A stretch of DNA of 64,000 bases. It comes from Candidatus Magasanikiibacteriota bacterium. GTDB lineage: Bacteria; Patescibacteriota; Patescibacteriia; Magasanikbacterales; GWA2-37-8. The position numbers and the translations under genes were made by a program. The stretch lies in the NCBI GenBank assembly GCA_963802255.1, contig CAWDHY010000001.1:28728-92727 (forward strand). Reading direction: 5' to 3'. The notes beneath the pieces are model-generated. The model saw nothing but the letters and a program-made list of their open reading frames with translations. It was not told where the DNA came from and did no database searches. Below are positions 1-16,997 of the stretch, piece by piece (the stretch's first letter is position 1; every line of letters begins with the position of its first letter).

Positions 1-421
1 TCGCCACGCTCACATTAAGGCTTGTTTTTTGGCCTTTCATCGGTATAACCACGCTTGTGTCACAATATTTAAGAAGATTGTTTGTTACCCCCGTTTTTTC
101 ATTACCAACAACAAGTGCAAGAGGTTTTTTTGGCTTCCATTTAAATAAATCAAGGCTTTTTTTCGTCTGTTCCAAAGCCACTATATTATACCCTTTTTCA
201 CGCAATTGGGTAAGCAAACGCCAGGTCTGTTTCTGATATTCCCAGGGCATCCATTTTTCCGCACCCAAGGACACCTTGTCCAATTGAGGATGGGGGGGCC
301 GGGCGGTATATCCGCATAAATATATTTTTTCTACACCCGCGCCATCCGCGGTCCGAAACATAGCGCCCACATTATGCGCGCTTCTAATATCCGGTAAAAT
401 CAAGACAAATTTTTCTTTCAT
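1..421 (-). CDS. SpoU/TrmH-family RNA 2'-O-methyltransferase (C-terminal part lies beyond the window start)
   Basis: Minus-strand ATG at 421..419, then MKEKFVLILPDIRSAHNVGAMFRTADGAGVEKIYLCGYT...LALVVGNEKTGV. This carries the SpoU methylase motifs. The ORF runs off the window. The ATG overlaps the TGA stop of the upstream recombinase (ATGA). Confidence 0.7.
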   Translation of the reverse strand, partial: MKEKFVLILPDIRSAHNVGAMFRTADGAGVEKIYLCGYTARPPHPQLDKVSLGAEKWMPWEYQKQTWRLLTQLREKGYNIVALEQTKKSLDLFKWKPKKPLALVVGNEKTGVTNNLLKYCDTSVVIPMKGQKTSLNVSVA

Positions 422-1239
422 AAATCAAGCGGACTAACAATATTTTTCAAATTATTATTTGCCACATGGGTATAGATCTGAGTGGTCTGCAATTTAGCGT
501 GGCCCAATAATTCTTGAATATATCTAATATCCGTCCCATTTTCAAGCAAATGTGTGGCAAACGAGTGGCGCAATGTATGCGGAGTAACATTTTTAGCAAT
601 ATCAGCTTTTTTTGCAGCAAAAACCACAATTTTTTGTATTGTCGCCTCTGTTAATCTATCGCCACGCCCATTAGTGAACAAAAAATCATTTGGTTGCTTC
701 AAACTTTTTTGTTTTATCAAAATCTCCTTAAGCGACTCCGGCAAAAGAGTCATTCTATCTTTCTTACCTTTGCCTTGGAATATCCGCAGTAATCCTCGAT
801 CAAAATCTATATCCTTCATCCTAACATGTGTTAATTCACTCACCCGCAGTCCACAACCATATAACATAGATATAATACAATTATGCTTCAGATTCACCGG
901 GGCAGCAAGTATTCGCACCACTTCTTCCTTAGATAAAACTACCGGGATATGCTTTTCCTTTCGCGGATGCATTAAATTGATAAAAAATTGACGGTGCCAA
1001 ATCGTTTTATAATAAAATAACAGGGCATTATAGGCTACAGAGACCGTGCTGGTTGATCGTGAACCTGCTAAATAATCCAGGTAATCCTTAATATCATTGG
1101 CCGTCACCTCGCGCGGGTCTTTCAGACAAAATCGCAGAAACTCATTATTATAACGGATATATGAATCGGCAGTTTTTTGGCTATAATTACGAATTCTTAA
1201 CTCCCGAGATAAATTTTCAAATGTGTTGCCCTCCCCCAT
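418..1239 (-). CDS. Tyrosine site-specific recombinase, XerC/XerD-like (phage integrase family)
   Basis: 273 aa. N-terminal SAM-like core-binding region (ANDIKDYLDYL). Catalytic residues R (CGLRVSEL), K (GKGKKDR), HTLRH, LLGH and IYTHV Y, spaced as in Xer proteins. Too short to carry the IntI-specific insertion. Confidence 0.85.
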   Translation of the reverse strand: MGEGNTFENLSRELRIRNYSQKTADSYIRYNNEFLRFCLKDPREVTANDIKDYLDYLAGSRSTSTVSVAYNALLFYYKTIWHRQFFINLMHPRKEKHIPVVLSKEEVVRILAAPVNLKHNCIISMLYGCGLRVSELTHVRMKDIDFDRGLLRIFQGKGKKDRMTLLPESLKEILIKQKSLKQPNDFLFTNGRGDRLTEATIQKIVVFAAKKADIAKNVTPHTLRHSFATHLLENGTDIRYIQELLGHAKLQTTQIYTHVANNNLKNIVSPLDL

Positions 1240-1350
1240 ATTATTTGCTAAAATTAATGCGCTATACCCCCATGGGCTATAACCTCAATTTAGCAAAAAT
1301 TTTATCATATTTTAGCCATTTTAGCTACTAGTTATGATAAAGGTAGTTAT

Positions 1351-1731
1351 ATGACATTTTATTTAATTTTTAACCAAAAAACTATGAAAACAACACCAAG
1401 TCATTTCATGATTTCTGTAAAGGACATGGAAAAATCTTTAAACTTTTATCGTGATAAATTAGGATTAAAAGTTTTATACAAAACTGATGAATGGTCAGAA
1501 CTTTCTTTTGACAACAATTTAGAGCTTGCACTTAAAAAAGATGAGAAAGGTGCTAATTTAAATTGTGCTGGTATCGGTTTCCAAGTAGATGACTGCGAAG
1601 AAGCAACAAAATATTATGAATCAAAAGGAGTTGAATTTACTACAAGATGTCAAAAGAAAGAAGATATTATCTTAAGTCAGTTTAAAGATTCTGATGGAAA
1701 TGTAATTTGGCTATCTCAAAAAATTAAATAA
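1351..1731 (+). CDS. VOC family protein (glyoxalase/bleomycin-resistance/dioxygenase fold)
   Basis: MKTTPSHFMISVKDMEKSLNFYRDKLGLKV... is a typical VOC betaalphabetabetabeta N-terminus. The likely start is the internal ATG at 1384. Confidence 0.65.
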   Translation: MTFYLIFNQKTMKTTPSHFMISVKDMEKSLNFYRDKLGLKVLYKTDEWSELSFDNNLELALKKDEKGANLNCAGIGFQVDDCEEATKYYESKGVEFTTRCQKKEDIILSQFKDSDGNVIWLSQKIK

Positions 1732-1734
1732 AAC

Positions 1735-1806
1735 ATCACATAACACGCGATATCTGCAAGGGCTAAAGCCACATTTCTATGAAACGTCAGATATCGCGAA
1801 ACGTTA
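1735..1806. repeat. 72-nt imperfect palindrome (attC-like stem-loop) directly after the VOC gene stop
   Basis: CACATAAC-A-CGCGATATCTG ...31 nt... CAGATATCGCG-AAAC-GTTATGTG. The outer 8-mers are exact reverse complements. The inner 11-mers are exact. The bulges are asymmetric (1 nt versus 4 nt). Confidence 0.6.
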
Positions 1807-1813
1807 TGTGAAA

Positions 1814-1870
1814 TATACTTTTTCTTTTCGGGCTATCGTCCGCGCTTCACCAAAATAAATAAAATTTGAT
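1814..1870. repeat. Left terminal inverted repeat flanking ORF 1928..2800
   Basis: tatactttttctttt-cgggctatcgtccg-cgcttcaccaaaataaataaaatttgat. Its 15-nt and 28-nt arms are perfect reverse complements of 2907..2921 and 2866..2893. Confidence 0.8.
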
Positions 1871-1927
1871 TTTTTCTTTTATAAAAGGGAAAATAAGGAA
1901 AATAATTTATTAGTTAACTATAAAACT

Positions 1928-2800
1928 ATGTCAATCGAAAGACCAACACCACAGGATGTCGTGAGTCCCGAATCTCGCGAAAGTGAGGAGTCAAAATACG
2001 CTCTTGATTCTAATCAAGAATTTTTGGGCTTCCAAAACGTGGAGGTAACAAAAACAGACGATACAAAGCCATGGAAACCAGCTCTCGAAGTAAAAGTAAC
2101 AAAAACCGATGGTTCAGTTGCTGAAAATCTTGACGCTAACACGCCATTTTTCACATTTCGTGATTCAGAAGGAAACGAAATGACGGTCACTGCGGCCGCA
2201 GCTGGACACATTGATCAGTTGCACATCAAAGGTGAAGACGCCGGCAGTAAGTTTGATTATTCATCACTTGAAGCATTGTTTAAGGATGTTGCCCAAAAAT
2301 TACCACAGGAAGTTGCCAGTGCGCCGGGCGTGTCTGACTTTGCTGTAGACATGGGACGGCACATGGGAAAGGAAGGAATCGCAAGCATGGCAGAATTAAA
2401 AACAGAAGGTATTTTAAGCGAAGCAGACTTGAGTACTGCTGAATCTGTTCGTGCGGAAGTACAGGAGCTTAACAAGTCCGGTGACGAAGCTGCAAAAAAA
2501 GCATTTGCAGAAAAATTCAAAGCAGATAATCCTGACTGCAAAGTACAGTTTCAGCTTGTCCGCGGAACCGTGCTCGTTCCAACCGTAGATACGCCAAAAC
2601 GAGACACTACTAAATTATTCATGGTATTTGGCCCTGGTGCAGATGTAAAGAAAACTGCATATACAATGGCACCAGGTAGACATATGCCACGACACCCAAA
2701 TCCAGGCCAACATAAAAATCAAGAAGGTATACTTAATGAGGAAACCTTTAAAGAATCAGCTGACGCATGGTTTGACACGGTAATGTTGACCGGAAAATAA
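1928..2800 (+). CDS. Hypothetical acidic protein (no recognisable domain), TIR-flanked cargo ORF
   Basis: 290-aa ORF. GC looks higher than its neighbours by eye. Flanked by inverted repeats and followed by a perfect 14-bp stem terminator. Confidence 0.55.
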   Translation: MSIERPTPQDVVSPESRESEESKYALDSNQEFLGFQNVEVTKTDDTKPWKPALEVKVTKTDGSVAENLDANTPFFTFRDSEGNEMTVTAAAAGHIDQLHIKGEDAGSKFDYSSLEALFKDVAQKLPQEVASAPGVSDFAVDMGRHMGKEGIASMAELKTEGILSEADLSTAESVRAEVQELNKSGDEAAKKAFAEKFKADNPDCKVQFQLVRGTVLVPTVDTPKRDTTKLFMVFGPGADVKKTAYTMAPGRHMPRHPNPGQHKNQEGILNEETFKESADAWFDTVMLTGK

Positions 2801-2807
2801 AAAGGAA

Positions 2808-2856
2808 TTGACGGGACGCAATTCACCCCTTTTGTTTCCCTCTTGCGTCCCGTCAA
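2808..2856 (+). terminator. Hairpin terminator
   Basis: TTGACGGGACGCAA-21 nt loop-TTGCGTCCCGTCAA, a perfect 14-bp stem. Confidence 0.6.
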
Positions 2857-2865
2857 TATGGATAA

Positions 2866-2921
2866 ATCAAATTTTATTTATTTTGGTGAAGCGACCCTAA
2901 CGGGTTAAAAGAAAAAGTATA
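2866..2921. repeat. Right terminal inverted repeat (reverse complement of 1814..1870)
   Basis: atcaaattttatttattttggtgaagcg-accctaacgggtt-aaaagaaaaagtata. Further imperfect similarity extends to about 2990, including the 18-bp palindrome GGGCTTTTATAAAAGCCC at 2949..2966. Confidence 0.8.
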
Positions 2922-3054
2922 CATCATATAACAGCGTGCATGCGGTTCGGGCTTTTATAAAAGCCCTCTCCCATATTTGCTACACAAACATCAGGTGCAA
3001 TATTACTCGGCAGGCATTAAACTTAATATATAATTCATCAAATATTTTCTTAAT

Positions 3055-3600
3055 ATGGATCCACTAAAGATAATTCGAAAGTATTATCAAGTTGATTCAA
3101 AGTCTTATCAATTTTTAGTAGAACATGGCAAAGCAGTTACTAAGAAAGCTATCAAAATTGCAGAAAAAAATCCTCATCTTCATCCTGACGTGAAATTCAT
3201 AGAAGAAGCATCCATGTTACATGATATTGGAATGTTCTTAACTAATAATCCTGGAATTGGATGTTTTGGTAAAAAACCATACATCTGTCATGGATATTTA
3301 GGTAAAGAACTTTTAGAAAAAGAGAGCTTACCAAAACACGCATTAGTTTGCGAAAGACATGTTGGGGTGGGAATTTCAATCAAAGACATTGAGGAACTAA
3401 AATTACCAATACCTAAAAGAGATATGATTCCAATTTCGATAGAAGAACAAATTATTTGCTTTGCTGATAAGTTTTTTTCAAAATATGAAGGCGGTTTATC
3501 TAAAGAAAATAGCCTTGATAAGATTAGAACTGGATTATTAAAATTTGGTAATGACAAAATAAAAATATTTGATGAATGGATGATAAAATTTAAATGTTAA
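3055..3600 (+). CDS. HD-domain phosphohydrolase
   Basis: H...HD motif in SMLHDIGMF, with downstream conserved His and Asp. 181 aa. Confidence 0.75.
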   Translation: MDPLKIIRKYYQVDSKSYQFLVEHGKAVTKKAIKIAEKNPHLHPDVKFIEEASMLHDIGMFLTNNPGIGCFGKKPYICHGYLGKELLEKESLPKHALVCERHVGVGISIKDIEELKLPIPKRDMIPISIEEQIICFADKFFSKYEGGLSKENSLDKIRTGLLKFGNDKIKIFDEWMIKFKC

Positions 3601-3743
3601 TGCCTACCTGCGTAATACAACACCTAACACGGCATACACGGCTACGGTTTGCTCCGCAAACCTTCGCCCATATTGCACGGGTGTAGCCTGTCGGCTATTA
3701 TACACCCACGCAACATCGTATACGCCGAAACGTTATACGAAAT

Positions 3744-4901
3744 ATGATTATGAAAGCAAAATATCCTAATTTTATAATTTTAACATTCGCTATTTTAGGA
3801 ATGATTTTTTTGAGTGGCTGTGGGTTGCAAGATGTCAAGCAGGAGTCGGTACCGGAAGAAAATTTTCCAAAAATCGCAAGCTGGCTTTCGAAAAAGGATG
3901 AAATAATCGCCGGCAAACATCCTTATGACTTGATTATGACGGCCTGGTTTACTCCCGAAGAAGCGGAAAAAATTAAATTAGCAAATCCCAGCGCAAAAAT
4001 ATTAGCAGGACTATCCGCCAATTGGGTTTGGGATAATCGCGACTGGATGACTTTTTTGATAACAGCGGCAAATTATGGAAAAAAAGAGCCGATAGAAATG
4101 ACCGAGGAAATGTATTTACATAAGCTTAATGGTGAAAGATGCGCTTTCGGTTGGGCGTCTCCGGAGTGGGGGCACGAAGAAATTTATGCCATGGACCCGA
4201 GAAATGATAGGTGGATTGAGCTGATAACTTCTTTTTATAAAAACGTTTTGGACCAGGCGACACACGATGGTATCATTGTGGACATGGTGACGGAAAAACA
4301 ATGGTGGTGTCCCGAAGCGATCAGCAATGAAGAATGGCTCAACGCTACGAAAAACATTTTTTCAAAAATAGAAAAAATTAATACCAAGGACAAATTGGTT
4401 ATTATGAATGCCGGTAAGGACATCCAGGATATCGATGAATTTGGCGAATATTTTGACGGGTATCTGATGGAGAATTTCATGGGCAACCAGATGAAAACGA
4501 AGTTCGAAGATGGTTTGGCGGCGGCCGACAGCAAATACATTGTTATTTATGGAGTTGATACTGATGATACCGGCCAGAAAGATTTAAAAAAAATGCGCCT
4601 TGGCTTAACATTGAGCTTGCTAAATGATAATACTTATTTTACCTATGATTTTGGACCAAGAGACCACGGACAAGCATGGTGGTTTGATGAGTATAATGCT
4701 GAACTTGGGAGCGCTCTTGGAAAATATTATAAGAAGGACAACGCATACTGGAGGGAATTTGAAAAAGGAATTGTTGTGAGCTCTCCTTACAATGATATTG
4801 TTGTTTCATTTGATAAAGAATATGTTGATGCGACAACAAAAGTTAAAGCTAAAATATTTAATATTGGAAAAGAAGACGGGAGGATATTTTTAAAAAATTA
4901 A
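3744..4901 (+). CDS. Lipoprotein, putative TIM-barrel glycoside-hydrolase-like protein
   Basis: Lipobox LSGC at residues 23-26. A GH114-like assignment is only a weak, by-eye family resemblance. Confidence 0.5.
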   Translation: MIMKAKYPNFIILTFAILGMIFLSGCGLQDVKQESVPEENFPKIASWLSKKDEIIAGKHPYDLIMTAWFTPEEAEKIKLANPSAKILAGLSANWVWDNRDWMTFLITAANYGKKEPIEMTEEMYLHKLNGERCAFGWASPEWGHEEIYAMDPRNDRWIELITSFYKNVLDQATHDGIIVDMVTEKQWWCPEAISNEEWLNATKNIFSKIEKINTKDKLVIMNAGKDIQDIDEFGEYFDGYLMENFMGNQMKTKFEDGLAAADSKYIVIYGVDTDDTGQKDLKKMRLGLTLSLLNDNTYFTYDFGPRDHGQAWWFDEYNAELGSALGKYYKKDNAYWREFEKGIVVSSPYNDIVVSFDKEYVDATTKVKAKIFNIGKEDGRIFLKN

Positions 4902-4938
4902 TAAAGAAATAAAAAAATAATTAAATTAACTTAAAAAT

Positions 4939-5553
4939 ATGATAAAATTTCCCAAAGCTTCGCCTACAGTGCGCGCGGTTGCAGCTGTCATATTAGTCGC
5001 GGCTGCCGGTACAGTTTATCTGGCAAGAACCAAGCCGTTGATGTTTCAGTCTGTAACAGAAAAAATTGAAAGTATCATTACGCCCAAACCGCCGATAGGT
5101 AATCTGACACCGGCACGTGATCTGCGAGGTACTTGGAAGTCATCATTATCCGGCAAAGGCCTACAGTTATACGGCAGACACACCACTTACGGCTCAATTA
5201 CTGACATGTATGAAGACGGCGATATTGAACTGATTATTAATAACGTTCAAAATAATATTGCAGTCGGCACCATGCGCTATATCAATCTTTGCGGCTGGGG
5301 AGAAACCACTGTCACCATTCCTGGCGCAGAAGGAGTCATTAATGTGCCCAAAACTTGCGTGGCCGATACCGGTCCACAAGAAATCAGTATTCAAGTAAGC
5401 TCAAGCGCTCTGGATTTTGGAACAATTTCTGTTGACGGCATCACGGCCACAATGCAAGGCAATTTTACAACCGATATTATAAGTGGCACAATGACGGTAA
5501 CCATGCCGGGTGGAGTATTAAAAGGCACTTTTAATTTGTCGCGGCAAAGATAA
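4939..5553 (+). CDS. Hypothetical signal-anchored secreted protein
   Basis: N-terminal hydrophobic segment AVAAVILVAAAGTVYLA. Gly/Thr-rich beta-type C-terminus. Confidence 0.5.
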   Translation: MIKFPKASPTVRAVAAVILVAAAGTVYLARTKPLMFQSVTEKIESIITPKPPIGNLTPARDLRGTWKSSLSGKGLQLYGRHTTYGSITDMYEDGDIELIINNVQNNIAVGTMRYINLCGWGETTVTIPGAEGVINVPKTCVADTGPQEISIQVSSSALDFGTISVDGITATMQGNFTTDIISGTMTVTMPGGVLKGTFNLSRQR

Positions 5554-5611
5554 TTTGTAATGGAAAGTGTTTACTTCCTCTCAACTTCAGAAAGCAATTG
5601 ATTTATAAATT

Positions 5612-7735
5612 ATGACTGGCATGCTAATAAAAAAATTTAATCAGATCTCCAAAATTGATACTAAGATAGCCGGAGGCAAAGGCGCTTCACTCGGAGAGAT
5701 GACGCAGGCAAATATTTCTATACCGGGAGGTTTTGTAATTCTTTCCAATGTATTTGACGTCTTTATTGAAAAAACGGATCTAAATATTGAAATCGACGCG
5801 GTTTTGGACACAGTTGATATCAATAAAGTCCATACTGTCGAGAATGCGTCTGAGAGAATTAAAGCAATGATTCTTTCTAAAGAAATTCCAAAAAATATAG
5901 AAACGAAAATATTAAAAAATTTTAAAAAATTGGGTTCAAAATTTGTAGCGGTCCGGTCTTCGGCCACGGCAGAGGACTCTATTACCGCCGCATGGGCAGG
6001 ACAATTAGAAAGCTACCTCAACACGACAGGCAAAACACTTTTGGAAAATGTTAAGAAATGCTGGTCCTCGCTATTTTCTCCCAGGGCCATATTTTACAGA
6101 TTCAATAATAAGTTAGACAAGAAAAAAATTTCGGTTGCAGTCGTCATCCAAAAAATGGTTCAAGCGAAAAAATCAGGTATTGCTTTTTCGGTCCATCCCA
6201 TTACAGAGGATAAAAACCAGATAATTATTGAGGCTGGCTTTGGTTTGGGGGAAGCAATTGTTTCCGGGTCAATAACTCCGGATAGTTATGTTATTGATAA
6301 ACAAGGGCTTAAAATAATTGATATTAATGTAAATGAGCAAAAAAAAGCATTATACAAAAAAGCCGGTGGTGGAAATGAGTGGAAAAAACTGGGAGAAAAA
6401 GGTAAAAAACAAGTTTTATCTGGAAAAGAGATTGTTGAGTTGTCAAAACTAATCATGAAAATTGAAAAGCTTTACGGTTTTCCGTGTGATATTGAATGGG
6501 CAAAAGAAAAAAATCATTTTTATATTACTCAAAGCCGGCCGATTACCACATTGCCTAATACAACTAAAAGAAAACAAACAATTTTGAACTATATAAAAGG
6601 CCAAAAATGGTTTTTTGGCGTAAGAGCCGACGAGTCTTTATTATTTTATTCAGCAAAACAGGACGGATGCAATGAATACATAAAAAAAGAATACGGAGCC
6701 GAGTTTGCGGAAACTTTGCTCATCCCCTTGCTAAAAAACCGCCCAATCAGAGTTTTTAATCTTTCGCAGGCAAAAAAATTCCATGAATTCTCCAATAAAA
6801 AAATTCTAAAAAATCCGCGCATTATATTAACTTATATCGCTAAAAATAATCGCCTATACCAAGAAATGGAATCTAACGGAAAAAGATTAGCGACGGCAAT
6901 AAAAAACTGCGATTATCACAAAAGTGCGGGGTTGTTTAATAAAATATGTAACCTTTATAAGGTTGCCGGCGCGCAGTATATTATTATTTTTTCTTTAGGC
7001 CTTAAATTGACTGAAAATATAAATAACCTGAAAAATATTGGAGGGATTGTACAAAAGCATGATGAATGGAGGAACAGCGTGGCATTTAAAGAAGAAGAGC
7101 TGGGTGAAAATCTTTTTTATTTTTTTAAATTTTTATCAGAACAAAGGAAGCTAGAGATTGCGCCTCATCATTTTATGAAATTATTAACTTTAAATGAGAT
7201 TAATAATTGGTTAAACGAGAAGTTAACGGACGCGGAAATAAGAGGCATCATAAAATCAAGAAAACAACATGGTTTTATATATTTAAATTTAAATAATGAA
7301 CGCCGTGAGATTATTGACAGTTCTACGGAAATTAAAAAAATTCAAAAATATTTTTTTAAATTGGATAGAGCGGAGAAAAAATCAAATAACCCCAATATCA
7401 TTAAAGGCCAAACTGCTTGCGGTTCAAATGAAATAATAAAAGGAAAAGTTATTGTTATTAAAGATAAATCTGAATTAAAAAACAAAAGCCGTTTAATAAA
7501 GGGTAAAATTTTAGTAGCTATCCAGACTACGCCTCACTTTATTCCTTATATGAAAAATGCCAAAGCGATTATCACCGATGAAGGCGGATTGACCTGCCAT
7601 GCGGCAATTGTGGCCAGAGAATTTAATAAACCTTGTATAATCGGAACCGGTACTGCAACGCACATATTAAAAGACGGTGATGCGGTTGAATTGGAAATGA
7701 ACGATGGCACCATAAAAATTATTATAAAAAAATAA
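5612..7735 (+). CDS. PEP-utilising enzyme family protein, PpsA/rifampicin-phosphotransferase-like (N-terminal ATP-grasp, C-terminal phosphohistidine mobile domain, no PEP-binding TIM barrel)
   Basis: The N-terminus KIAGGKGASLGEM is the pyruvate phosphate dikinase PEP/pyruvate-binding-type ATP-grasp. The C-terminus GGLTCHAAIVAREFNKPCIIGTG is the PEP-utilisers mobile domain with its catalytic His. 707 aa. Confidence 0.8.
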   Translation: MTGMLIKKFNQISKIDTKIAGGKGASLGEMTQANISIPGGFVILSNVFDVFIEKTDLNIEIDAVLDTVDINKVHTVENASERIKAMILSKEIPKNIETKILKNFKKLGSKFVAVRSSATAEDSITAAWAGQLESYLNTTGKTLLENVKKCWSSLFSPRAIFYRFNNKLDKKKISVAVVIQKMVQAKKSGIAFSVHPITEDKNQIIIEAGFGLGEAIVSGSITPDSYVIDKQGLKIIDINVNEQKKALYKKAGGGNEWKKLGEKGKKQVLSGKEIVELSKLIMKIEKLYGFPCDIEWAKEKNHFYITQSRPITTLPNTTKRKQTILNYIKGQKWFFGVRADESLLFYSAKQDGCNEYIKKEYGAEFAETLLIPLLKNRPIRVFNLSQAKKFHEFSNKKILKNPRIILTYIAKNNRLYQEMESNGKRLATAIKNCDYHKSAGLFNKICNLYKVAGAQYIIIFSLGLKLTENINNLKNIGGIVQKHDEWRNSVAFKEEELGENLFYFFKFLSEQRKLEIAPHHFMKLLTLNEINNWLNEKLTDAEIRGIIKSRKQHGFIYLNLNNERREIIDSSTEIKKIQKYFFKLDRAEKKSNNPNIIKGQTACGSNEIIKGKVIVIKDKSELKNKSRLIKGKILVAIQTTPHFIPYMKNAKAIITDEGGLTCHAAIVAREFNKPCIIGTGTATHILKDGDAVELEMNDGTIKIIIKK

Positions 7736-7782
7736 TAAACTAGGGATCTTTAATATGATGATGCCGGGAGCAATTCAAATAA

Positions 7783-8775
7783 TTGCTTCTTTGTGTTAAA
7801 ATGAATGATACGCATATGATTACATACATATTATTTGTCATAGGGTTTTTTCTGCTCATCAAAGGAGCCGGTCTTCTAGTTGACGGTTCAGCATCAATCG
7901 CGAAGAAATTGAAGATTTCCAGTATTGTCATTGGCCTGACAATCGTCGCTTTTGGCACTTCCGCGCCGGAATTTATAGTCAATATCTTCGCCAGCGCTCA
8001 AGGAAGCAGCGAGCTCGCTATTGGCAACATTTTGGGCAGTAATATAGCCAACATATTACTGATACTCGGCATTTCGGCCATTATTTACCCAATCGTCGCC
8101 AAAAAGAACACCGTTTTAAAAGAAATTCCACTCAGTCTTCTTGCCATCATCTTAGTCGGAGTAATGGCTAATGATAGAATAATAGACGGCAACGGCTTCT
8201 CCGGTCTGACAAGAATTGATGGCATCGTTCTTTTGTCTCTATTAATAATTTTTCTTTACTATACTTTTGGTATTACTAAGTCAAAAAGTGATATCCCTGA
8301 TGACGGCAAAATAGAAGTTTTTAGTTATTTCAAAGCGATAATGTTTATCATTATCGGCCTTGCCGGATTAACGCTCGGCGGAAAATGGATTGTTGATGGC
8401 GCGATAAAAATAGCGCAAATTTTTAATATCAGCCAATCATTAATTGGATTGACAATAGTCGCTATCGGCACTTCATTGCCTGAACTAGCCACCTCCGCAG
8501 TAGCCGCCTACAAAAAACAATCAGATATAGCTATTGGCAATGTCGTCGGCTCCAACATATTAAATATATTTTGGATTCTCGGTTTGAGTGCTGTCATCCG
8601 TCCCCTGCCGTTTAACACCAGCTCCAATATAGATATATTGATGACGATATTCGCCAGTTTAATTTTATTTCTGGCGATGTTTGTCGGTAAAAAATTGGTT
8701 ATACAAAGATGGCAAGGCATATTGATGATAACGGCCTATGTTGGCTATATCGTTTTCCTGATCATGACTAAATAG
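7783..8775 (+). CDS. Ca2+/cation antiporter, CaCA family (YrbG-like)
   Basis: Two alpha-repeats, GTSAPEF and GTSLPELATS. Multipass membrane protein. The start may be at 7801. Confidence 0.8.
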   Translation: MLLCVKMNDTHMITYILFVIGFFLLIKGAGLLVDGSASIAKKLKISSIVIGLTIVAFGTSAPEFIVNIFASAQGSSELAIGNILGSNIANILLILGISAIIYPIVAKKNTVLKEIPLSLLAIILVGVMANDRIIDGNGFSGLTRIDGIVLLSLLIIFLYYTFGITKSKSDIPDDGKIEVFSYFKAIMFIIIGLAGLTLGGKWIVDGAIKIAQIFNISQSLIGLTIVAIGTSLPELATSAVAAYKKQSDIAIGNVVGSNILNIFWILGLSAVIRPLPFNTSSNIDILMTIFASLILFLAMFVGKKLVIQRWQGILMITAYVGYIVFLIMTK

Positions 8776-8781
8776 AAAATT

Positions 8782-9930
8782 ATGAAAATCGCGTATATTC
8801 ACAGCAATAAAAAAATCGGCACAGGTTCTCATTATATCAACGACCTGATTGTGTCTAAACTGCAAGAATATAATGTGGATGTACAGAGTTTTTATCCGCA
8901 ATTCATCTTAACGGACGCACCGGTGCATTTTAAGGGGCTAAATAATATCCTCTTTTTTTATTCACTGCTTGAAAAACGGGACAAAATATTGAAGTGCGAC
9001 ATAATTCAAGGAACAACATACACGCCTATTGCTTTTATGCGCTTCTCAAAGCCGGTGATATCGCACTTCGGTTCAACAACCATAGGTTTTTTAAAGGCCG
9101 TTCCAAAAACTAACAACATCGAACCGGAATGCGCGGATATTTTTTATGCGCTTAAAAAAGCCGGCGCCATATCTGAAATTAACATTAAAACCAGGCGCCC
9201 GCTGAATGACATCGTAACAATTGAACATTATGCCGCTGAAAAAGCTGACTTTATTATTGCCACTTCAGAAATAGTAAAAGATAATCTGGTTGAAGCCGGA
9301 ATCACGGCATCAAAAATTGAAGTTATTTATAACGCGATTGAAGACTATTGGTTTGATACTCCGAAACAGGATTTTTCCTTAAACCCGTCGCTTGTCTTTT
9401 TGGGCAGAATCGGCGATGACGCGTTCACATTGAAACTAAAAGGTTTAGACCGTTTAATATATTTTTATAAAAAATTTCCGGAAACGCCAAAACTATCAAT
9501 AGTAATGTCCCGCAATAAAAAATTGATTTTATGGATGAAAAATAATATTCAAAATCACCAGGTTGAGTCAAATGTAATAAAAACTGACATACCAAATAAA
9601 TTAGCTAGTCATGAAGGGAGTATCCTGTTGATTACATCCCGCTATGAAGGATTTTCGCTTAGTTTGATTGAGGGAATGTCTCAGGGGCTGGTCCCGGTAA
9701 GCTTCCCAATTGGTGTTGCACCGGAAATTATCCGCAATGGTGAAAATGGCTTTCTTGTTAATGACATTCATGAAGCTGAAGAGAAAATTCGTTGCCTACT
9801 GAACGATACCGACCTTAGAAAAAAAATGTCAAAAAATGCAAAAAATACTTCCCAGAAATTCAGGTCTGACGTATTGGCTCATAAAATGATTGCCTTATAT
9901 AATAATATTTGTCACAGGAAAACAATCTGA
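8782..9930 (+). CDS. Glycosyltransferase family 4 (GT-B)
   Basis: EGFSLSLIEGMSQGLVPV...GENGFLV, an EX7E-type motif. Confidence 0.75.
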   Translation: MKIAYIHSNKKIGTGSHYINDLIVSKLQEYNVDVQSFYPQFILTDAPVHFKGLNNILFFYSLLEKRDKILKCDIIQGTTYTPIAFMRFSKPVISHFGSTTIGFLKAVPKTNNIEPECADIFYALKKAGAISEINIKTRRPLNDIVTIEHYAAEKADFIIATSEIVKDNLVEAGITASKIEVIYNAIEDYWFDTPKQDFSLNPSLVFLGRIGDDAFTLKLKGLDRLIYFYKKFPETPKLSIVMSRNKKLILWMKNNIQNHQVESNVIKTDIPNKLASHEGSILLITSRYEGFSLSLIEGMSQGLVPVSFPIGVAPEIIRNGENGFLVNDIHEAEEKIRCLLNDTDLRKKMSKNAKNTSQKFRSDVLAHKMIALYNNICHRKTI

Positions 9931-9950
9931 AAACTGCATTAACCAATATT

Positions 9951-10193
9951 ATGAGCAAAAAAAATGTTGATGAGATAATCGGCTGGTACGGTACCACTGC
10001 AATCGTTTTGGCATATGCACTCTTGAGTTTTGGCTTTATTGCTTCCGACACTTTAATATACCAAATATTAAATATCACAGGCGCGCTTGGCATTGTGTAT
10101 ATATCTTTTAAAAAGAAAGCCTACCAGCCCGGAATTTTAAACATTATTTGGGTGGTAATCGCTATGATTGCCATAATAAAATTATTTGTGTAA
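9951..10193 (+). CDS. Small three-TM membrane protein
   Basis: About 80 aa from the internal ATG (MSKKNVDEIIGWYGTTAIVLAYALLSF...). Three hydrophobic helices. Confidence 0.4.
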   Translation: MSKKNVDEIIGWYGTTAIVLAYALLSFGFIASDTLIYQILNITGALGIVYISFKKKAYQPGILNIIWVVIAMIAIIKLFV

Positions 10194-10239
10194 AATGCTA
10201 TTAAGTGAGGTAAAATAGTCATAAAGTAATATTTGACAT

Positions 10240-11097
10240 ATGGTCAAAAATACGACAAATATCGGCAAGCATGAATTGGGGGTAGAAAAATTCTATTCAC
10301 ATGGATCAAAAAGACGCTCTCTTGAAGCGGATGGCTTTCTCTCATTTGGCTACTGGGACAAAGATACTGAAGAATACCTGGAGGCGGCTCAAAATTTAGT
10401 AAATTTTTTTCTAAAAGAAGGAGAAATTGAAAACCCGGAAAATGTTCTTAATGTGGCCTGCGGATACAGCGCGGAATCATTTCGTTTTTTTGAAGCCCTT
10501 AAACCGAAAGAAATGCGTTGCATAGATATTACTCAAGCACATATTGATTTTGCTAAAAAAAGAGCTGAACAAAAACATCTTGACGATAAATTAAAATTTG
10601 AAAAGAAAGATGCCTGCAGGACAGGCTACCAAAATGAATTTTTTAGCCATGTTGTCGGTATAGAAGGGCCAGCTCACTTTAATACCAGAACTGATTTTTT
10701 TAAAGAATGCTATCGGGTGCTAAAACATAAAGGTAAATTAATGCTGACCGATATCACTTTTGATCCGGTTGCGGCGAGTAAAAATTATCTGGTAAAAAAA
10801 ATGACTGAATTAGGCTCTCGTCACTGGCACATGCCAAAAGATAACTGGGTAAATGTGGAAAAATATTGCGAACAACTGCGCCAGGCAGGATTTAGAGTGG
10901 AAAAGTGCCTGCGCATAGGTGATAAGGTGTTCCCGGCGTTTGCAAAATATAATACACGGATTAAATCCATGTTGCGAGCTGTTAAAACTCGGGGGATACC
11001 TCTTGGTGTCGGGCTGTCTTTCATCTCATGGCTCCTTGGATACGGCTATAGGCACAAAGTAATTGACTACATTTTTATAAAAGCTGAAAAAATTTAA
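10240..11097 (+). CDS. Class I SAM-dependent methyltransferase
   Basis: Motif I VLNVACGYS. Post-I acidic residue. LKHKGKLMLTDI. Confidence 0.75.
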   Translation: MVKNTTNIGKHELGVEKFYSHGSKRRSLEADGFLSFGYWDKDTEEYLEAAQNLVNFFLKEGEIENPENVLNVACGYSAESFRFFEALKPKEMRCIDITQAHIDFAKKRAEQKHLDDKLKFEKKDACRTGYQNEFFSHVVGIEGPAHFNTRTDFFKECYRVLKHKGKLMLTDITFDPVAASKNYLVKKMTELGSRHWHMPKDNWVNVEKYCEQLRQAGFRVEKCLRIGDKVFPAFAKYNTRIKSMLRAVKTRGIPLGVGLSFISWLLGYGYRHKVIDYIFIKAEKI

Positions 11098-11109
11098 TAG
11101 TATTATATT

Positions 11110-11685
11110 ATGCCAACACTAAAAGGATCTAAAACGGAACAGAATTTGCTTAAATCATTTGCCGGCGAATCACAGGCGAGAAACCGCTACGATTTTTTTG
11201 CCAGTGTCGCCAAAAAAGAAGGGCTGGAGCAAATTAGCGCCATATTCATGGAAACAGCGCTCAACGAGAAAGAGCACGCCAAAAGATTTTTCAAATTCTT
11301 GGAAGGAGGCCCTGCTGAAATTACCGCCACTTATCCGGCTGGGGTTATCGCAAACACTTTAGAAAATTTGAAAGCCGCGGCCGAGGGAGAATTGGAAGAA
11401 TGGAGCAAACTCTACCCGGAATTTGCTAAAGTGGCTGGAGAAGAGGGTTTTATGGATATAGCAGCGACCTATAAAGCTATTGCTAAAGTGGAACAAGCTC
11501 ACGAGAACCGTTACCGCAAACTGTATGAAAATTTGGAGGCCGGCAAAGTGTTTGTACGCGAAGGTGTAATGGTCTGGAAATGCCGAAATTGCGGATATTT
11601 GCATGAAAGTGAAAAAGCTCCGGATAAATGCCCGGCTTGCCAGCACCCGCAAGCATTCTTTGAACTGTTTACGGAAAATTATTAA
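11110..11685 (+). CDS. rbr: Rubrerythrin (diiron domain plus C-terminal rubredoxin-like CxxC...CxxC)
   Basis: ExxH diiron motifs. C-terminal WKCRNCGY...CPACQHP. Confidence 0.9.
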   Translation: MPTLKGSKTEQNLLKSFAGESQARNRYDFFASVAKKEGLEQISAIFMETALNEKEHAKRFFKFLEGGPAEITATYPAGVIANTLENLKAAAEGELEEWSKLYPEFAKVAGEEGFMDIAATYKAIAKVEQAHENRYRKLYENLEAGKVFVREGVMVWKCRNCGYLHESEKAPDKCPACQHPQAFFELFTENY

Positions 11686-11690
11686 TATAA

Positions 11691-11718
11691 AAAGAGCGGC
11701 CTTGCTAGGCCGCTCTTT
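11691..11718. terminator. Bidirectional hairpin terminator between rbr and ruvC
   Basis: AAAGAGCGGCC-ttgcta-GGCCGCTCTTT. Confidence 0.7.
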
Positions 11719-11728
11719 TATTTAAGAA

Positions 11729-12238
11729 TCATTTTCCTTTGATTTTCTTTTTCCAAAGAGACTGGCCGGCGCAAAGTGCCACGGCAAGCGCATCGGCAGC
11801 ATCATCGGATTTTATTTTTTTTGGAACGCGCAAAATCGCAGCAACCATTTTCTGCATCTGCCCTTTTTCAGCTCTTCCATATCCGGTAATTGCCTGCTTT
11901 ACCTGAAGCGGTGTAAACTCATCCACCGGCAAATTATTTTCCACCGCTGTTAAAAGTATTACGCCTCTGGCCTGCCCCACCTTTATTGCTGTCTTCGCGT
12001 TTTTGAAAAAAAACAAATCTTCAACCGCCATTCTGGTTGGGCGGTATTTTTTTATCAAAAAAACCAACTGCTTATGCAAGTCGGCAATTCGATCAACAAA
12101 CACTCCGTTGACCGGTGTTTCAATACACCCATAGGCACGTGGCAGCCAGCCATTAACCCGGTCTTTCTCAATGATACCATAACCAATACGGCCATAACCC
12201 GGGTCAATACCGATGATTATTTCTTTAGCGACAGACAT
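11729..12238 (-). CDS. ruvC: Holliday junction resolvase RuvC
   Basis: IIGIDPGYGRIGYGII N-terminus. 169 aa. Confidence 0.9.
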   Translation of the reverse strand: MSVAKEIIIGIDPGYGRIGYGIIEKDRVNGWLPRAYGCIETPVNGVFVDRIADLHKQLVFLIKKYRPTRMAVEDLFFFKNAKTAIKVGQARGVILLTAVENNLPVDEFTPLQVKQAITGYGRAEKGQMQKMVAAILRVPKKIKSDDAADALAVALCAGQSLWKKKIKGK

Positions 12239-12262
12239 ATATTAATTTACAGACAATTATAC

Positions 12263-12994
12263 TTAATCGGCGTTTGTATACCAATCCTCAATATCATCGT
12301 TGGATTCAAACTTACCAAATAAATTTTCCAATTTTCCCTGCAATTCCGGGTCTGCAATAATCTTATCCTTTGCTTCCCAAATTAATCCGGAATCTCTCGG
12401 TTCAATGTTCATTTCTTTAAGTTTGTCTAAAACTTTTTTAAAATTTTCAACTTTTGATTTAATATCAACAACACCTTCATCCCCAATCTCAATTTCCTCC
12501 GCTCCGGCATCAATCATTAATAATTCAAAATTATCCCGACTCATTGTTGCAACCTGTTCGTTCATAATTTGCGCCCACCCGAACTGATTGAACATCCAAA
12601 GAACTGATCCGGAACTCCCGAGTGAGCCTCCACTATCAGAAAGAATATGTTTTACGTCTTGTACCGTGCGATTTTTGTTATCTGTGACGGTTTTGATAAG
12701 CAAAGCCACACCTGAGGGACCATATCCTTCATATAAAATTTCTTCCATCCGGACGCCATCTCCGGATTCACCTGTTCCCTTTTTTATGGCGCGTTCAATA
12801 TTATCCTTTGGCATACCCGCGGATTTGGCTTTTTCAATCGCCAAACGCAGAGAAAAATTCATAGCAGGATCACCCCCGCCTTTACCGGCGGCGACAGTGA
12901 GTATTTTTGCGACCTTGGTAAACATGTTGCTTCGCACAGCGTCTTGTTTGCCCTTGCGCCCCTGTATATTGTGCCATTTACTATGCCCGCTCAT
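12263..12994 (-). CDS. yebC: YebC/PmpR family DNA-binding regulator
   Basis: MSGHSKWHNIQGRKGKQDAVRSNMFTKV. Sits upstream of ruvC as in the canonical operon. Confidence 0.9.
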   Translation of the reverse strand: MSGHSKWHNIQGRKGKQDAVRSNMFTKVAKILTVAAGKGGGDPAMNFSLRLAIEKAKSAGMPKDNIERAIKKGTGESGDGVRMEEILYEGYGPSGVALLIKTVTDNKNRTVQDVKHILSDSGGSLGSSGSVLWMFNQFGWAQIMNEQVATMSRDNFELLMIDAGAEEIEIGDEGVVDIKSKVENFKKVLDKLKEMNIEPRDSGLIWEAKDKIIADPELQGKLENLFGKFESNDDIEDWYTNAD

Positions 12995-13101
12995 AATTTT
13001 ATTTATGATTTACTATGCATGTTTGTTTTATATTACTTTGAAAACGTTCAAAAATCAAGCAAAAAAACCGCCGGCTCAATGCCGACGGCTTTTTTTTCAT
13101 T

Positions 13102-16100
13102 TTATCGCTTAAAGCCAGTACCGGAGGGAATCAGCCGGCCGATAATCACGTTTTCTTTCAGACCTTCCAAATAATCAATCTTACCGGTAATAGCAGTGTT
13201 GATAAGCACACGAGCTGTCTCCTGGAACGAAGCGGCTGAAAGGAAGCTTTGAGTTGAGAGCGAAACACGAGAAATGCCGAGCAATAATTCACGGGCGGTC
13301 GCTTCCTTACCTCCATCTTTGCGCGCTACGCGATTCGAAAATTCCAATTGTGCTTTCTCCACGACTTCACCCGGAAGCAAATCAGTATCACCGGCATCTT
13401 CAACATAAACACGGCTGAACATTTGTTTTATAACAAGCTCCATGTGTTTATCATTAACTTTCTGGCCTTGGGAAGAATAGATGTTCTGTGTTTCTTCAAG
13501 CACATAGCGTTGTACAGCGGCACGTCCTTTTAAGTCAAACAGTTCATGCAAATTTACCGAGCCATCTGTGAGTTGGGTACCTTTTTCCACCTTATCGCCA
13601 TTTTTAACATACATCTTATATCCGAGCGGAATAATATATTCACGCACCTTCGGACCATTATACGACAAAGTCATGGTACTCTTCCCCACCTTTACTTGGC
13701 TTGGATATTTAGCTTTTACTTCGTCGCCTGAAGAACCACGCACAACCAGAACAGCATCAGAATCAACCATTTCCCCATCTTTAACCAACACTTCATCTTC
13801 GGCGGCGAATTTTATTTTTGTTTCATCCATGCCTTCAAAGTGAATCCTGATAATTTTTTGACCGCGACGGCCTTCAAATATTTTCTTGCCGGATGGCGAA
13901 GTAATAATTTTCCCATCGGCATCTTCAATTTCAATTGTACCGTCAACATCAGCTAAAAATGCCTGATGTTTTGGATTGCGGCACTCAAAAAGCTCTTCAA
14001 CGCGAGGTAAGCCTTGAGTGATATCAGAACCCGCTATACCGCCGGTGTGGAAAGTGCGCAGAGTAAGCTGGGTGCCCGGCTCGCCAATTGATTGGGCGGC
14101 GATAATGCCTACGGCAGTGCCCAATTCCGCCGGTTTATTGTAAGACAAGTCAAAACCATAGCACTTCTGACAAACACCTTTCGGTAATTTACACTGTAAT
14201 ACACTTCTTACATGCACTGACTTGACATCACTGTCATCAATTGCTCTGGCGGCTTTTTCATCAATCACCTCACCTGACTTTACTAAAATTTTATTGCCGG
14301 CTTTAATATCTTCCAAAGCATAACGGCCCCAGATGCGGTCTGATAATTTTTCACCCATTTCTTGCGACTGTTCGGCGGTAAATATTTCACCGATATTATC
14401 TCCGCAATCTTCTTCCAATACTACAACGTCCTGTGCAACATCCACTAAGCGTCGGGTTAGATAACCGGCGCCAGAGGTTCGCAGGGCGGTATCAGACAAA
14501 CCTTTTCTCGTACCATGAGAAGAAATAAAGTATTCAATTGCGGAAAAGCCCTCTTTAAAGTTGCCTTTAACCGGCAATTCAATAACATCGCCCGAAGGTG
14601 AAGCCACCGGACCTTTCATACCGATAACCTGGCCTAGCTGACCCCAAGAACCTCGCGCTCCCGATTCAATCATGGCGAATACCGGTCCATTCTCATCCAA
14701 AATATCTTTTGTGCCGGTGACTACCTTATCTTTCGTTTCCGCCCAAATTTCAATAATTTTCTGATGTCGTTCGGCCTGAGTTAAAAGACCATCCTGATAT
14801 TGTTCTTCAACCAGTTGGACTCTACCGTCCGCTTCTTTGACTATCGGATCTTTTTCCACAATTTTCGGAAAGTCATCCATGCCCAACGAGTACGCCGCTT
14901 TTGTGGCGTAACGGAAACCAAGATTTTTTAAATCATCTAAAAACAAGGCTGTTTTTTCCTGGCCATAGTATTCCAGATGCAGAGAAATAATCTTACCAAG
15001 TTTCTTTTTATTAATCAGCTCATTGTAATATGGCATCTTATCAGGCATAACGGAGTTAAAGAGCAGGCGTCCGATAGATGTCTCAACGATTGCCCCCTGA
15101 TCTTCGGTAAACTTTGACAAATCGGTAAAACGAACTTTTATTTGTTGATGCAAGGTTATAACCCGGCTCTTGTACGCCAACACCGCTTCTTTCTCGGTTG
15201 AAAATGCCATCACTGCCTTTGATGCTTTTTCATCAGCTCGAGTGAGATAAAAACAACCAAGGACGATATCCTGACTTGGCGCAATAACAGGAGCGCCTGT
15301 TGCCGGTTTTAAAATATTCTTTTCAGCCGCCATCAGATTGTCAGCTTCCCATCGGGCCTCTTTTGATAAAGGCAGATGCACAGCCATCTGATCGCCGTCA
15401 AAGTCAGCATTAAACGCAGTACAAACGAGAGGATGCAATTGAATGGCATTGCCTTCAATCATCCTTGGGTGAAATGCTTGAATTCCAAGACGATGAAGAG
15501 TCGGCGCACGATTCAAAAGTACGCGAGTAGTTTGAGTTAATCCTTCCAATATGTCCCAAACTTCATCACGTTCCGATTCAATAAACCGTCCGGCGGAGCG
15601 GACATTATGAGCCAATTCTCGTTTAATAATTTCAGCCATAATAAATGGCTTGAAAAGCTCCAGCGCCATGCGCTTCGGCAAACCACATTCATCGATATTA
15701 AGATTCGGCCCCACAACAATAACTGAACGCCCGGAATAGTCCACACGCTTCCCAAGAAGATTCTGACGAAATCGTCCTTGTTTGCCTTTCAATATGTCGG
15801 CCAGGGATCGTAATTGCCTCTTCTGTCCGGTTGATGCTGTGACTGTTTTGGCGTGACGGGCATTATTATCTATTAATGCATCAACCGCCTCCTGCAACAT
15901 ACGCTTTTCATTACGGCAAATTACTTCAGGGGCGTTGAGTTCAATCAGTCGGGTCAAGCGATTATTGCGGTTAATCACGCGACGATACAAATCATTCAGA
16001 TCAGAAGTGGCAAAACGTCCGCCATCCAGCGCCACCATTGGACGCAAGTCCGGTGGAATTACCGGTATGCATTTCATTACCATCCATTCCGGACGAATTT

Positions 16101-16971: not shown

Positions 16972-16997
16972 ATAATTATTGTTTTGGTTAATGTAAA

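Follow-up and report, generated by a model that had tools for sequence, protein, structure and literature searches.

An integron-like cassette array in a Candidatus Magasanikbacteria genome, with cassette ends that pair beyond the attC-like sites

The DNA analysed here, referred to as the window, is a stretch of 64,000 nucleotides from contig CAWDHY010000001.1. It represents 64 kb of the 628-kb genome of a Candidatus Magasanikbacteria member (Patescibacteria, also called the Candidate Phyla Radiation, CPR), and all window-wide statements refer to this region. Close to its left end lies an open reading frame (ORF) of 290 amino acids enclosed by long inverted repeats. This ORF is the second cassette of a three-cassette array headed by a tyrosine recombinase gene and an attI-like insertion site. 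The features of the locus are as follows, where L followed by a number designates a related locus used for comparison and R1 is the covariance model of attC-like sites described below.

418..1239, minus strand: tyrosine recombinase of 273 amino acids, divergent from the array (Pfam Phage_integrase, 1.7e-43, and Phage_int_SAM_4)
1327..1356, plus strand: attI-like insertion site AGTTATGATAA-AGGTAG-TTATATGACAT, with the crossover G|TT at 1346-1348
1347..1803, plus strand: cassette 1, an ORF of the glyoxalase/bleomycin-resistance family (1351 or 1384 to 1731; Pfam Glyoxalase, 6.9e-14) with its own attC
1732..1816, plus strand: attC-like site B, R''-L''-loop-L'-AAAC-R' (R1, 66.7 bits, E 3.6e-10)
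1804..2992, plus strand: cassette 2, the apparently mobile unit with the 290-residue ORF (blastn matches to L001, L019 and L020)
1803..1828, plus strand: left outer arm of the repeat, consisting of the R' box GTTATGTGA, the conserved mismatch AA and a 15-nt cassette-specific stem
1829..1842, plus strand: left mini-hairpin CGGGC-TATC-GTCCG, part of what had been called the divergent core
1843..1872, plus strand: left inner arm, 30 nt, perfectly complementary to 2864-2893
1873..1927, plus strand: 5' region of the 290-residue ORF, probably containing the cassette's own promoter
1928..2800, plus strand: cargo ORF of 290 amino acids, from a conserved CPR protein family of unknown function
2807..2857, plus strand: perfect 15-bp hairpin 3' of the stop codon (arms 2807-2821 and 2843-2857, 21-nt loop)
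2864..2893, plus strand: right inner arm, 30 nt
2894..2906, plus strand: right mini-hairpin ACCC-TAAC-GGGT
2907..2932, plus strand: right outer arm, consisting of a 15-nt stem, the conserved CA mismatch and the R'' box TCATATAAC
2920..3015, plus strand: attC-like site C, the own attC of cassette 2, truncated (R1, 38.1 bits)
2993..3732, plus strand: cassette 3, an HD-domain ORF (3055-3600; Pfam HD, 4.6e-06) with its own attC, fused to cassette 2
3616..3745, plus strand: attC-like site D, the last of the array (R1, 83.5 bits)

An initial annotation of the sequence had described near-perfect inverted repeats around the ORF. These are real, with slightly shifted limits: a repeat search of the window gave inner arms of 30 nt that are 100% complementary and outer arms of 26 nt that are 88% complementary. 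The outer pair comprises a 9-nt box (GTTATGTGA and TCATATAAC, with one mismatch), a 2-nt mismatch and 15 perfectly paired nucleotides (1814-1828 and 2907-2921). The core separating it from the inner pair is non-complementary, with 14 nt on the left and 13 nt on the right. The higher guanine plus cytosine content of the ORF, also reported at that time, is borne out by values of 0.429 for 2001-3000 and of 0.327 and 0.340 on either side. The ORF had in addition been credited with a perfect 14-bp terminator of its own. There is a perfect hairpin, of 15 bp, but it is not followed by a T tract and a scan of 1200-3800 returned no terminator-like site. A weaker inverted similarity that had been followed outwards to 1735 and 2990 is likewise present, and corresponds to the likeness of two palindromic attC-like sites, B and C, both of which match R1.

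The outermost 9 nt of the repeat are the R' box of the upstream attC on the left and the R'' box of the cassette's own attC on the right. The box GTTATRTGA occurs four times in 1346-2932, in alternating orientation, against 0.77 occurrences expected for the whole window. Positions 1736-1811 form a strong local palindrome, TCACATAAC-A-CGCGATATCTG...CAGATATCGCG-AAAC-GTTATGTGA, which has the R''-L''-loop-L'-R' layout of an integron attC site. As single-stranded DNA, this site B folds with z-scores of -6.3 (top strand) and -8.6 (bottom strand). The attC-like architecture includes an R'' with TAAC, a 12-bp L''/L' stem, a variable loop, a 4-nt spacer and an R' with GTTA, and an alignment of 11 sites shows compensatory changes in 15 of the 20 predicted pairs. 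The motif CGAAACGTTATRYGAAATAT is common to sites D and B.

The model R1 was built from those 11 aligned sites. It replaced a strict motif scan requiring R''/R' complementarity within one attC; since R' forms a hybrid with the next cassette, that scan had overlooked the majority of the sites. In the 64 kb, R1 finds exactly three sites (B, C and D), on the same strand and all adjoining the recombinase. It gives 10 matches in L001, five each in L013 and L019, four in L017 and three in L020, and the total in arrays is 48 (32 in a first set, with lengths of 85 to 208 nt, and 16 in L032-L036). The matches in L013, L019 and L032-L036 are independent of the training set. L008 and L012 have one match each, also with filters off, and their arrays may be of a diverged attC type. 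A double-stranded dif-like core site of the form L'-spacer-R' was set aside, since the L boxes differ between sites yet covary with L'', as expected of a hairpin rather than of a double-stranded core site.

The L stems fold as uninterrupted helices of 11-12 bp, from which the extrahelical bases that designate the recombinogenic bottom strand of integron attC sites are absent. Strand asymmetry comes instead from the 1-nt versus 4-nt spacer and from the conserved 2x2 mismatch, and in 31 of 35 sites the more stable fold is that of the bottom strand (mean -21.6 vs -19.1 kcal/mol, p = 3e-6). Site C is truncated: it scores 38.1 bits, compared with 71-92 bits for the intact copies in L001, L019 and L020, and its single strands fold poorly (z = -1.3 and -0.6). 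Its alignment with the intact L001 copy ends at 2992, just before L', and about 19 nt (L', the spacer and GTT) have been deleted after this position. The bases that follow (AGGTG...) already belong to the HD cassette and form its left end; at its right end this cassette reads ...CACCTAAC. As a result of this loss, cassettes 2 and 3 are fused and could move only together. Elsewhere, an 86-nt interval between two attC-like matches in L019 (833-918) looks like a mini-cassette without an ORF.

To examine the complementarity of cassette ends, the right end of each cassette (to TAAC) was reverse-complemented and compared with its left end, starting at the G of GTTA; the boundaries were taken from the attC matches. 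Own ends match in at least 11 of 15 nt at positions 12-26 in 19 of 28 cassettes from 10 arrays, and most of these reach 13-15. The 756 non-own pairs have a mean of 5.8 and 5.4% of them reach 11, while neighbours within an array reach at most 9. Within the window, cassette 1 pairs its own ends at 1346-1371 and 1719-1744 (26 nt at 88%, opening with the same box and with 15/15 beyond it), and cassette 3 does so at 3009-3034 and 3583-3608. The pattern is constant, with a 9-bp box, a sequence-conserved mismatch (AA or CA on the left and CA on the right, read on the plus strand) and a stem of 13-15 bp, whereas the sequence of the paired stem differs from cassette to cassette. Own-end pairing is also present in cassettes of 4 kb and 7.2 kb. 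The two mini-hairpins and a second stem of 20-30 bp recur in several unrelated cassettes (for example L001 820-1519, L001 4744-6022 and L013 11300-12239, the last counted on the reverse complement). In a small control of six class 1 integron cassettes, own-end complementarity extended over at most 11 nt.

Folding of natural end-joined junctions gave -70.4, -69.9, -69.4 and -66.7 kcal/mol, compared with -33.6, -32.8, -21.8 and -27.2 kcal/mol, respectively, for the same attC followed by the next cassette. The folded junction is one continuous hairpin made up of the inner stem, a four-way junction, the 15-bp stem, a 2x2 loop, the R box, the spacer and the L stem. A reconstruction with the arms of cassette 2 from the window has z = -15.

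These properties bear on where the arms might pair. In one alternative they would do so across the ORF in the single-stranded integrated array, either to juxtapose the flanking attC sites for excision or to sequester R' and R'' and thereby disable both neighbours. The same base pairs are indeed available in the linear form, bottom-strand folding is favoured, and R' of the preceding site, R'(n-1), is fully complementary to R''(n), while the R''(n)/R'(n) combination within the array is a hybrid. We nevertheless judge this quite improbable: pairing is equal in the 4-kb and 7.2-kb cassettes, for which closure of such a single-stranded loop is implausible, and in the circle the arms are adjacent and form one continuous hairpin with attC. 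A role in RNA is a second alternative. Here the flanks would pair in a read-through transcript and, as in ribosomal RNA operons, form either a stem for processing by RNase III or an end-to-end duplex with a protective effect. Perfect duplexes of 26-30 bp are good RNase III substrates, and the inner arms reach the ATG and the stop codon in several cassettes (L001 4744-6022 and 4047-4607). Against this, the likely promoter of the 290-residue gene lies downstream of the left arm, so that the gene's own transcript would miss that arm, and the stem contains a recombination box and a sequence-conserved mismatch, which points to recognition of DNA by a protein. The better folding of attC hairpins as the bottom strand, which would be antisense, also argues against a function in sense RNA, and pairing is maintained in multi-gene cassettes of 7.2 kb. 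We therefore give the RNA explanation very little credence. More generally, a rule that holds equally for cassettes of 4 kb and 7.2 kb speaks against any pairing across the ORF, whether in DNA or in RNA.

Cassette 2 was identified in other surroundings. By blastn, window positions 1783-2992 correspond to L001 2258-3468 at 91.6% identity and nothing around them matches. The L001 protein is 93% identical and its gene belongs to a series of small ORFs that share one orientation and have attC-like sites between them. Positions 1804-2980 match L019 at 85.8%, and 1799-2948 match L020 at 85.4%. The left breakpoint of the shared unit is at the T after the G of GTTA, that is G|TT (1803/1804). On the other side the unit extends beyond the right arm through its own attC; intact copies reach the next G|TT, and the copy in the window ends at about 2992. 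The neighbours in the five contexts are as follows.

Window: upstream, glyoxalase; downstream, HD domain
L001: upstream, SnoaL; downstream, ORF of 96 amino acids
L019: upstream, ORF of 144 amino acids; downstream, type II restriction-modification
L020: upstream, ORF of 188 amino acids; downstream, ORF of 473 amino acids
L017: upstream, ORF of 78 amino acids; the cassette has two genes, 2H-SAK followed by the 290-residue gene

The occurrence of one unit in five contexts with G|TT boundaries suggests that the cassette is a discrete mobile unit, as in integrons. This agrees with the initial proposal of a non-autonomous mobile unit with a single ORF and hairpin-forming boundaries. It does not agree with the accompanying idea of a miniature inverted-repeat transposable element (MITE) with terminal inverted repeats (TIRs). 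Inverted repeats of about 70 nt around a single ORF, with no transposase inside them, are what such an element would display, and the absence of a transposase had been correctly noted. The mobile unit is, however, offset from the repeats, since it starts at G|TT inside the left arm and continues past the right arm through its own attC. Target-site duplications, which had been suggested as a check, are missing (the bases outside the repeat read CGAAAC to the left and AGCGTG to the right). The 30-mer of the inner arm, sought in the window with up to three mismatches, is found only as the two arms (shuffles expect 0.00), and a search of viral contigs did not find it. All copies are in attC arrays and in one orientation. 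Finally, the repeat is specific to the cassette and not shared by a family, implying that it is base pairing that is conserved and not a common transposase binding site. A MITE-like origin is thus already contradicted and has next to no probability.

Comparison of the copies also informs on the origin of the arms. The left inner arm is conserved over 27 nt upstream of the non-cassette homologues in L005/L006/L021, and the 5' region up to the ATG is conserved with the chromosomal homologue in L006, where no copy of the inner arm is present downstream of the gene. It follows that the left inner arm is upstream sequence native to the gene and that the right inner arm is a secondary inverted copy of it. 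Among the copies of cassette 2, both inner arms carry paired changes in L001 (A to T) and in L020 (A to G), and the L019 copy has one uncompensated change, so that the 30-nt arms are perfect in three of four copies despite a divergence of about 8-15%. The right mini-hairpin has a compensatory change in L020 (ACCC-TAAC-GGGT to ATCC-TAAC-GGAT), and in the left one the stem is kept while the loop varies (TATC, TGGT, TACC, TGTC). The mini-hairpin motif GGGCTRYCGYCC is found about 27 nt past G|TT, in constant orientation, in at least five different cassettes (window 1830-1841; L001 848-859 and 2305-2316; L020 1187-1198; L032 9853-9864; L033 9855-9866; L034 5785-5796).

Part of these observations could be explained if the repeat were a functionless by-product of the way in which cassettes originate, for example by capture of a gene at the base of a long palindromic 'empty' element, and were kept perfect by intramolecular template switching or gene conversion. 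The native origin of the left inner arm and the secondary nature of the right one are in line with this, and simultaneous changes in both arms are what quasi-palindrome correction would give. The uniform layout (9-bp box, AA or CA versus CA mismatch, 13-15 bp) is more difficult to reconcile with it, as it is maintained with unrelated cargos and in genomes whose recombinases are 62-85% apart. So are the position-specific mini-hairpins, which show covariation, and the perfection of arms that should decay if they were unconstrained. We consider the by-product explanation unlikely.

The recombinase gene lies 560 nt upstream of the repeat, and its divergent arrangement with respect to the array is also seen in L008, L012, L013 and L032-L036. 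The protein scores 244.8 with the NCBIfam model NF040815 ('XerA/integron integrase'), above the cutoff of 220, and 244.7 with TIGR02249 ('integron integrase'), below the cutoff of 265 and in two separate stretches. In a pairwise alignment it is 34% identical to IntI1 from end to end, with gaps of 31 and 11 amino acids exactly where IntI1 has its extra domain. The recombinase is therefore devoid of the IntI-specific domain near patch III, which distinguishes it from integron integrases. This domain has been used to define IntI and has been reported to be necessary for activity. Among the plasmid matches listed, IntI1 is the commonest named protein (10 of 12). Relatives of the recombinase occur in Candidatus Magasanikbacteria, and the best 120 are all of about 273 amino acids. 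The 64-kb window contains no other tyrosine recombinase.

Such a recombinase heads an array of this type in all eight Magasanikbacteria relatives with upstream sequence, and a ninth contig ends at the attI crossover. Mobilisation in trans by the adjacent recombinase, which had been raised as a possibility, now appears very probable from this recurrent association. In L013, the closest relative and likewise from Magasanikbacteria, about 379 nt are missing from within the recombinase gene (9959-10434, matching window 417-687 and 1067-1281), which is probably a pseudogene; an array of about 8 kb with five attC matches still lies beside it. The contigs L009, L010 and L011, with close relatives of the recombinase, are labelled as metagenome-assembled genomes of 'uncultured Gammaproteobacteria' and end at or inside the recombinase/attI region, which probably reflects binning or labelling errors together with assembly breaks at the variable array.

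The attI-like sequence ...GTTnnnATAAAGGTAG|TTA is conserved upstream of the recombinase in L008, L009, L013, L032, L033 and L035, and more loosely in L012 and L034. Conservation runs to ...ATAAAGGTAG|TT and is followed by immediate divergence; across nine loci the sequence is conserved up to ...AGGTAG|TT and is different beyond, as expected of an integron attI. The L009 contig ends exactly at the G|TT crossover. Homology between the window and L013 (a 770-kb contig) covers the recombinase and its upstream region, stops at 1348 and resumes in a GHL15 gene at 3864-4789. The two stretches of homology are separated by 2.4 kb in the window. In L013 the corresponding interval measures about 8 kb and is occupied by other small co-oriented ORFs with five attC matches, and the cassettes differ. 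In L032-L036, all 16 attC matches are upstream of the recombinase and in the same relative orientation. The cargos include, in L033 (2901-9716), a complete type I restriction-modification system with Abi_C, which forms a single first cassette of about 7.2 kb with matched ends, and, in L019, a type II restriction-modification pair (N6_N4 methylase and TdeIII).

Several other observations concern the platform. A conserved hairpin GTGTTTTY...RAAAACGAT(TTATT), which could be a leader or regulatory element, is located about 100-130 nt into the first cassette, before unrelated genes (L012 5246-5275; L032 9768-9797; L033 9771-9800 and 817-852; L035 9753-9790; L036 2334-2371). It is missing from the window. 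The order recombinase, variable region, rubrerythrin, RuvC, YebC is common to the window and L034, and in L035 it holds only as far as rubrerythrin. The attI-like site can be read as a dif-like layout of 11-6-11 with inner ATAA/TTAT. In the window, plus-strand genes from 1351 to 11685 and minus-strand genes from 11729 to 20426 converge at about 11700, and near 11.7 kb, some 10 kb away from the attI-like site, positive GC skew gives way to negative. Judging from these features, position 11700 or so could be a replication terminus. In L033, where the attI-like site adjoins a ribosomal-protein operon, there is no obvious fit with a link to dif or the terminus. It is conceivable, if rather doubtful, that the 273-residue enzyme is a Xer-type recombinase, possibly the dimer-resolution enzyme of the cell with a dif-like attI, and serves also as the cassette integrase. 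The locus would then represent a natural 'proto-integron' of the Xer-to-IntI transition, in which long attC stems past the crossover and the 2x2 mismatch replace the extrahelical bases and the IntI domain.

The reading that we consider likely is that of an integron-type cassette and array in which the inverted repeat is an attC stem split by integration. We are highly confident of its first component, which identifies the unit as a cassette of integron type and its platform as integron-like. Its second component, which we hold with moderate confidence, takes the flanking repeat for the outer stem of the cassette's attC and gives it a role in the excised form, where it would stabilise the folded site. 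In this scheme the complementarity of attC continues past the R box through the conserved 2x2 mismatch and the 15-bp stem and, in some cassettes, through two mini-hairpins and the stem of 20-30 bp, and the crossover G|TT sits inside the 3' arm of this long palindrome. Because of that position, integration would relocate the distal portion of this arm to the 5' end of the cassette in its linear form, and the ORF would then look as if it were flanked by repeats. The adjacent recombinase would catalyse the reaction on folded single-stranded DNA. The extended stem would stabilise the folded attC in the excised circle for re-insertion, and it may compensate for the missing extrahelical bases and IntI extra domain.

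A number of points weigh against this interpretation. The mobility of the unit is deduced solely from its differing contexts. Since R1 was built from these same arrays, its matches there are partly circular evidence. The recombinase is without a domain reported as necessary for integron integrase activity, and a canonical IntI may exist elsewhere in the 628-kb genome, of which 64 kb were covered. The extension is missing in 9 of the 28 cassettes, which is also a point in favour of its being a by-product, and is hence not obligatory. As the left inner arm is the native upstream region of the gene, part of the repeat may be regulatory in origin. The perfect arms and the paired changes could also come from template-switch correction of quasi-palindromes, an established mechanism, and not from selection.

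The cargo of cassette 2 has 130 homologues, with 47-94% identity, all from Patescibacteria where the source is named. The family is widespread in CPR and has the strongly conserved motifs GHIDxLHIKG, GSKFD, PGRxMPRHPNPxQH and AWFDTVML. The protein has no Pfam domain and no NCBIfam, PHROG or PADLOC match. An AlphaFold2 model has a predicted local distance difference test (pLDDT) value of 89.9 and a predicted template modelling (pTM) score of 0.80, and searches of the PDB by fold and by sequence gave no match. The family may constitute a new fold or enzyme family. Upstream of the gene, a promoter-like sequence TTTATA-17-AATAAT is present at 1878-1906; it is weak evidence, such sites not being enriched over shuffles. 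In L017 (2157-3830), a gene for a 2H-SAK phosphoesterase (213 amino acids) lies between the left arm/promoter region and the 290-residue ORF, and the ribosome-binding region is duplicated, an arrangement that may hint at a functional link between the two proteins. The L034 array also contains a 2H-SAK gene. Other homologues of the 290-residue gene, with 78% nucleotide identity, are found in ordinary chromosomal contexts without attC (L005/L006/L021 and L007). An identical protein is encoded on a Logan contig that begins about 130 nt upstream of the ORF, within attC site B, which is how an assembly break at a repeat would look.

Integrons are defined and sought by an integrase with the extra domain, and recombinases without it that lie near attC sites have been dismissed as non-IntI. 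Standard tools would probably report the present arrays as orphan attC clusters, and cassette-based gene exchange in CPR bacteria, with their tiny genomes poor in known mobile elements, would then escape notice. Within a literature coverage that is incomplete, we found no description of integrons in Patescibacteria/CPR or of cassette ends that pair beyond the core site. With this system, the evolution of single-strand hairpin recombination from Xer-like enzymes becomes open to testing, as does the question of which structural features can substitute for extrahelical bases. The own-end pairing rule is a simple sequence signature, which could help to delimit cassettes and predict circular intermediates. 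As for the cargo, it is a CPR protein that is well conserved, has a fold predicted with confidence and lacks any relative of solved structure.

Among known systems, MITEs and other TIR elements share with the present one the inverted repeats around a unit that encodes no enzyme for its own movement. They differ in having target-site duplications, family-wide TIRs and dispersed copies, and boundaries that coincide with the repeats. The pdif modules of Acinetobacter plasmids, in which genes lie between inversely oriented XerC/D sites, are closer. They too are small modules bounded by inverted sequences resembling recombinase arms, and the same module is found in different contexts. Here, in contrast, the two inverted half-sites stand together between modules as one hairpin with a covarying stem, the cassettes are co-oriented beside a recombinase gene, and the repeats are module-specific and far longer than the 28-bp site.

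Xer/dif systems and the integrative mobile elements that exploit them (IMEX) offer a further parallel. The recombinase passes the XerA model, attI can be read as 11-6-11 with inner ATAA/TTAT, and the R' arm TTATGTGAAAT resembles the E. coli XerD arm, TTATGTTAAAT. IMEX such as CTXphi integrate as a folded single-stranded hairpin that mimics dif, and a folded hairpin is the probable substrate here; in both cases elements stack at one site beside a recombinase gene. The elements described here are not phages or islands but cassettes of a single gene, all pointing the same way and each equipped with a hairpin, and their L boxes covary instead of forming a conserved second arm.

The closest likeness is with sedentary chromosomal integrons such as the Vibrio cholerae superintegron, of which class 1 integrons are the mobile form. 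Like these, the array has a divergent tyrosine recombinase beside attI and co-oriented, mostly single-ORF cassettes ending in R''(..AAC)/L''...L'/R'(GTT..) imperfect palindromes. The crossover is G|TT, so that each cassette begins with bases that come from its own attC. Structure rather than sequence is conserved in these sites, as in attC, the content of the arrays varies between related genomes, and restriction-modification systems and small enzymes are among the cargos. In contrast to known integrons, the recombinase has no IntI-specific domain, the L stem is a clean helix of 11-12 bp whose asymmetry is provided by spacers and a 2x2 mismatch, and the host is a CPR bacterium. In addition, the stem goes from 15 to about 60 bp past the crossover and gives rise to the cassette-flanking repeats, for which the six class 1 cassettes, with 11 nt or less, have no equivalent. 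The system thus works like an integron in which two defining features, the IntI domain and the extrahelical bases, are absent and to which an extended split stem has been added.

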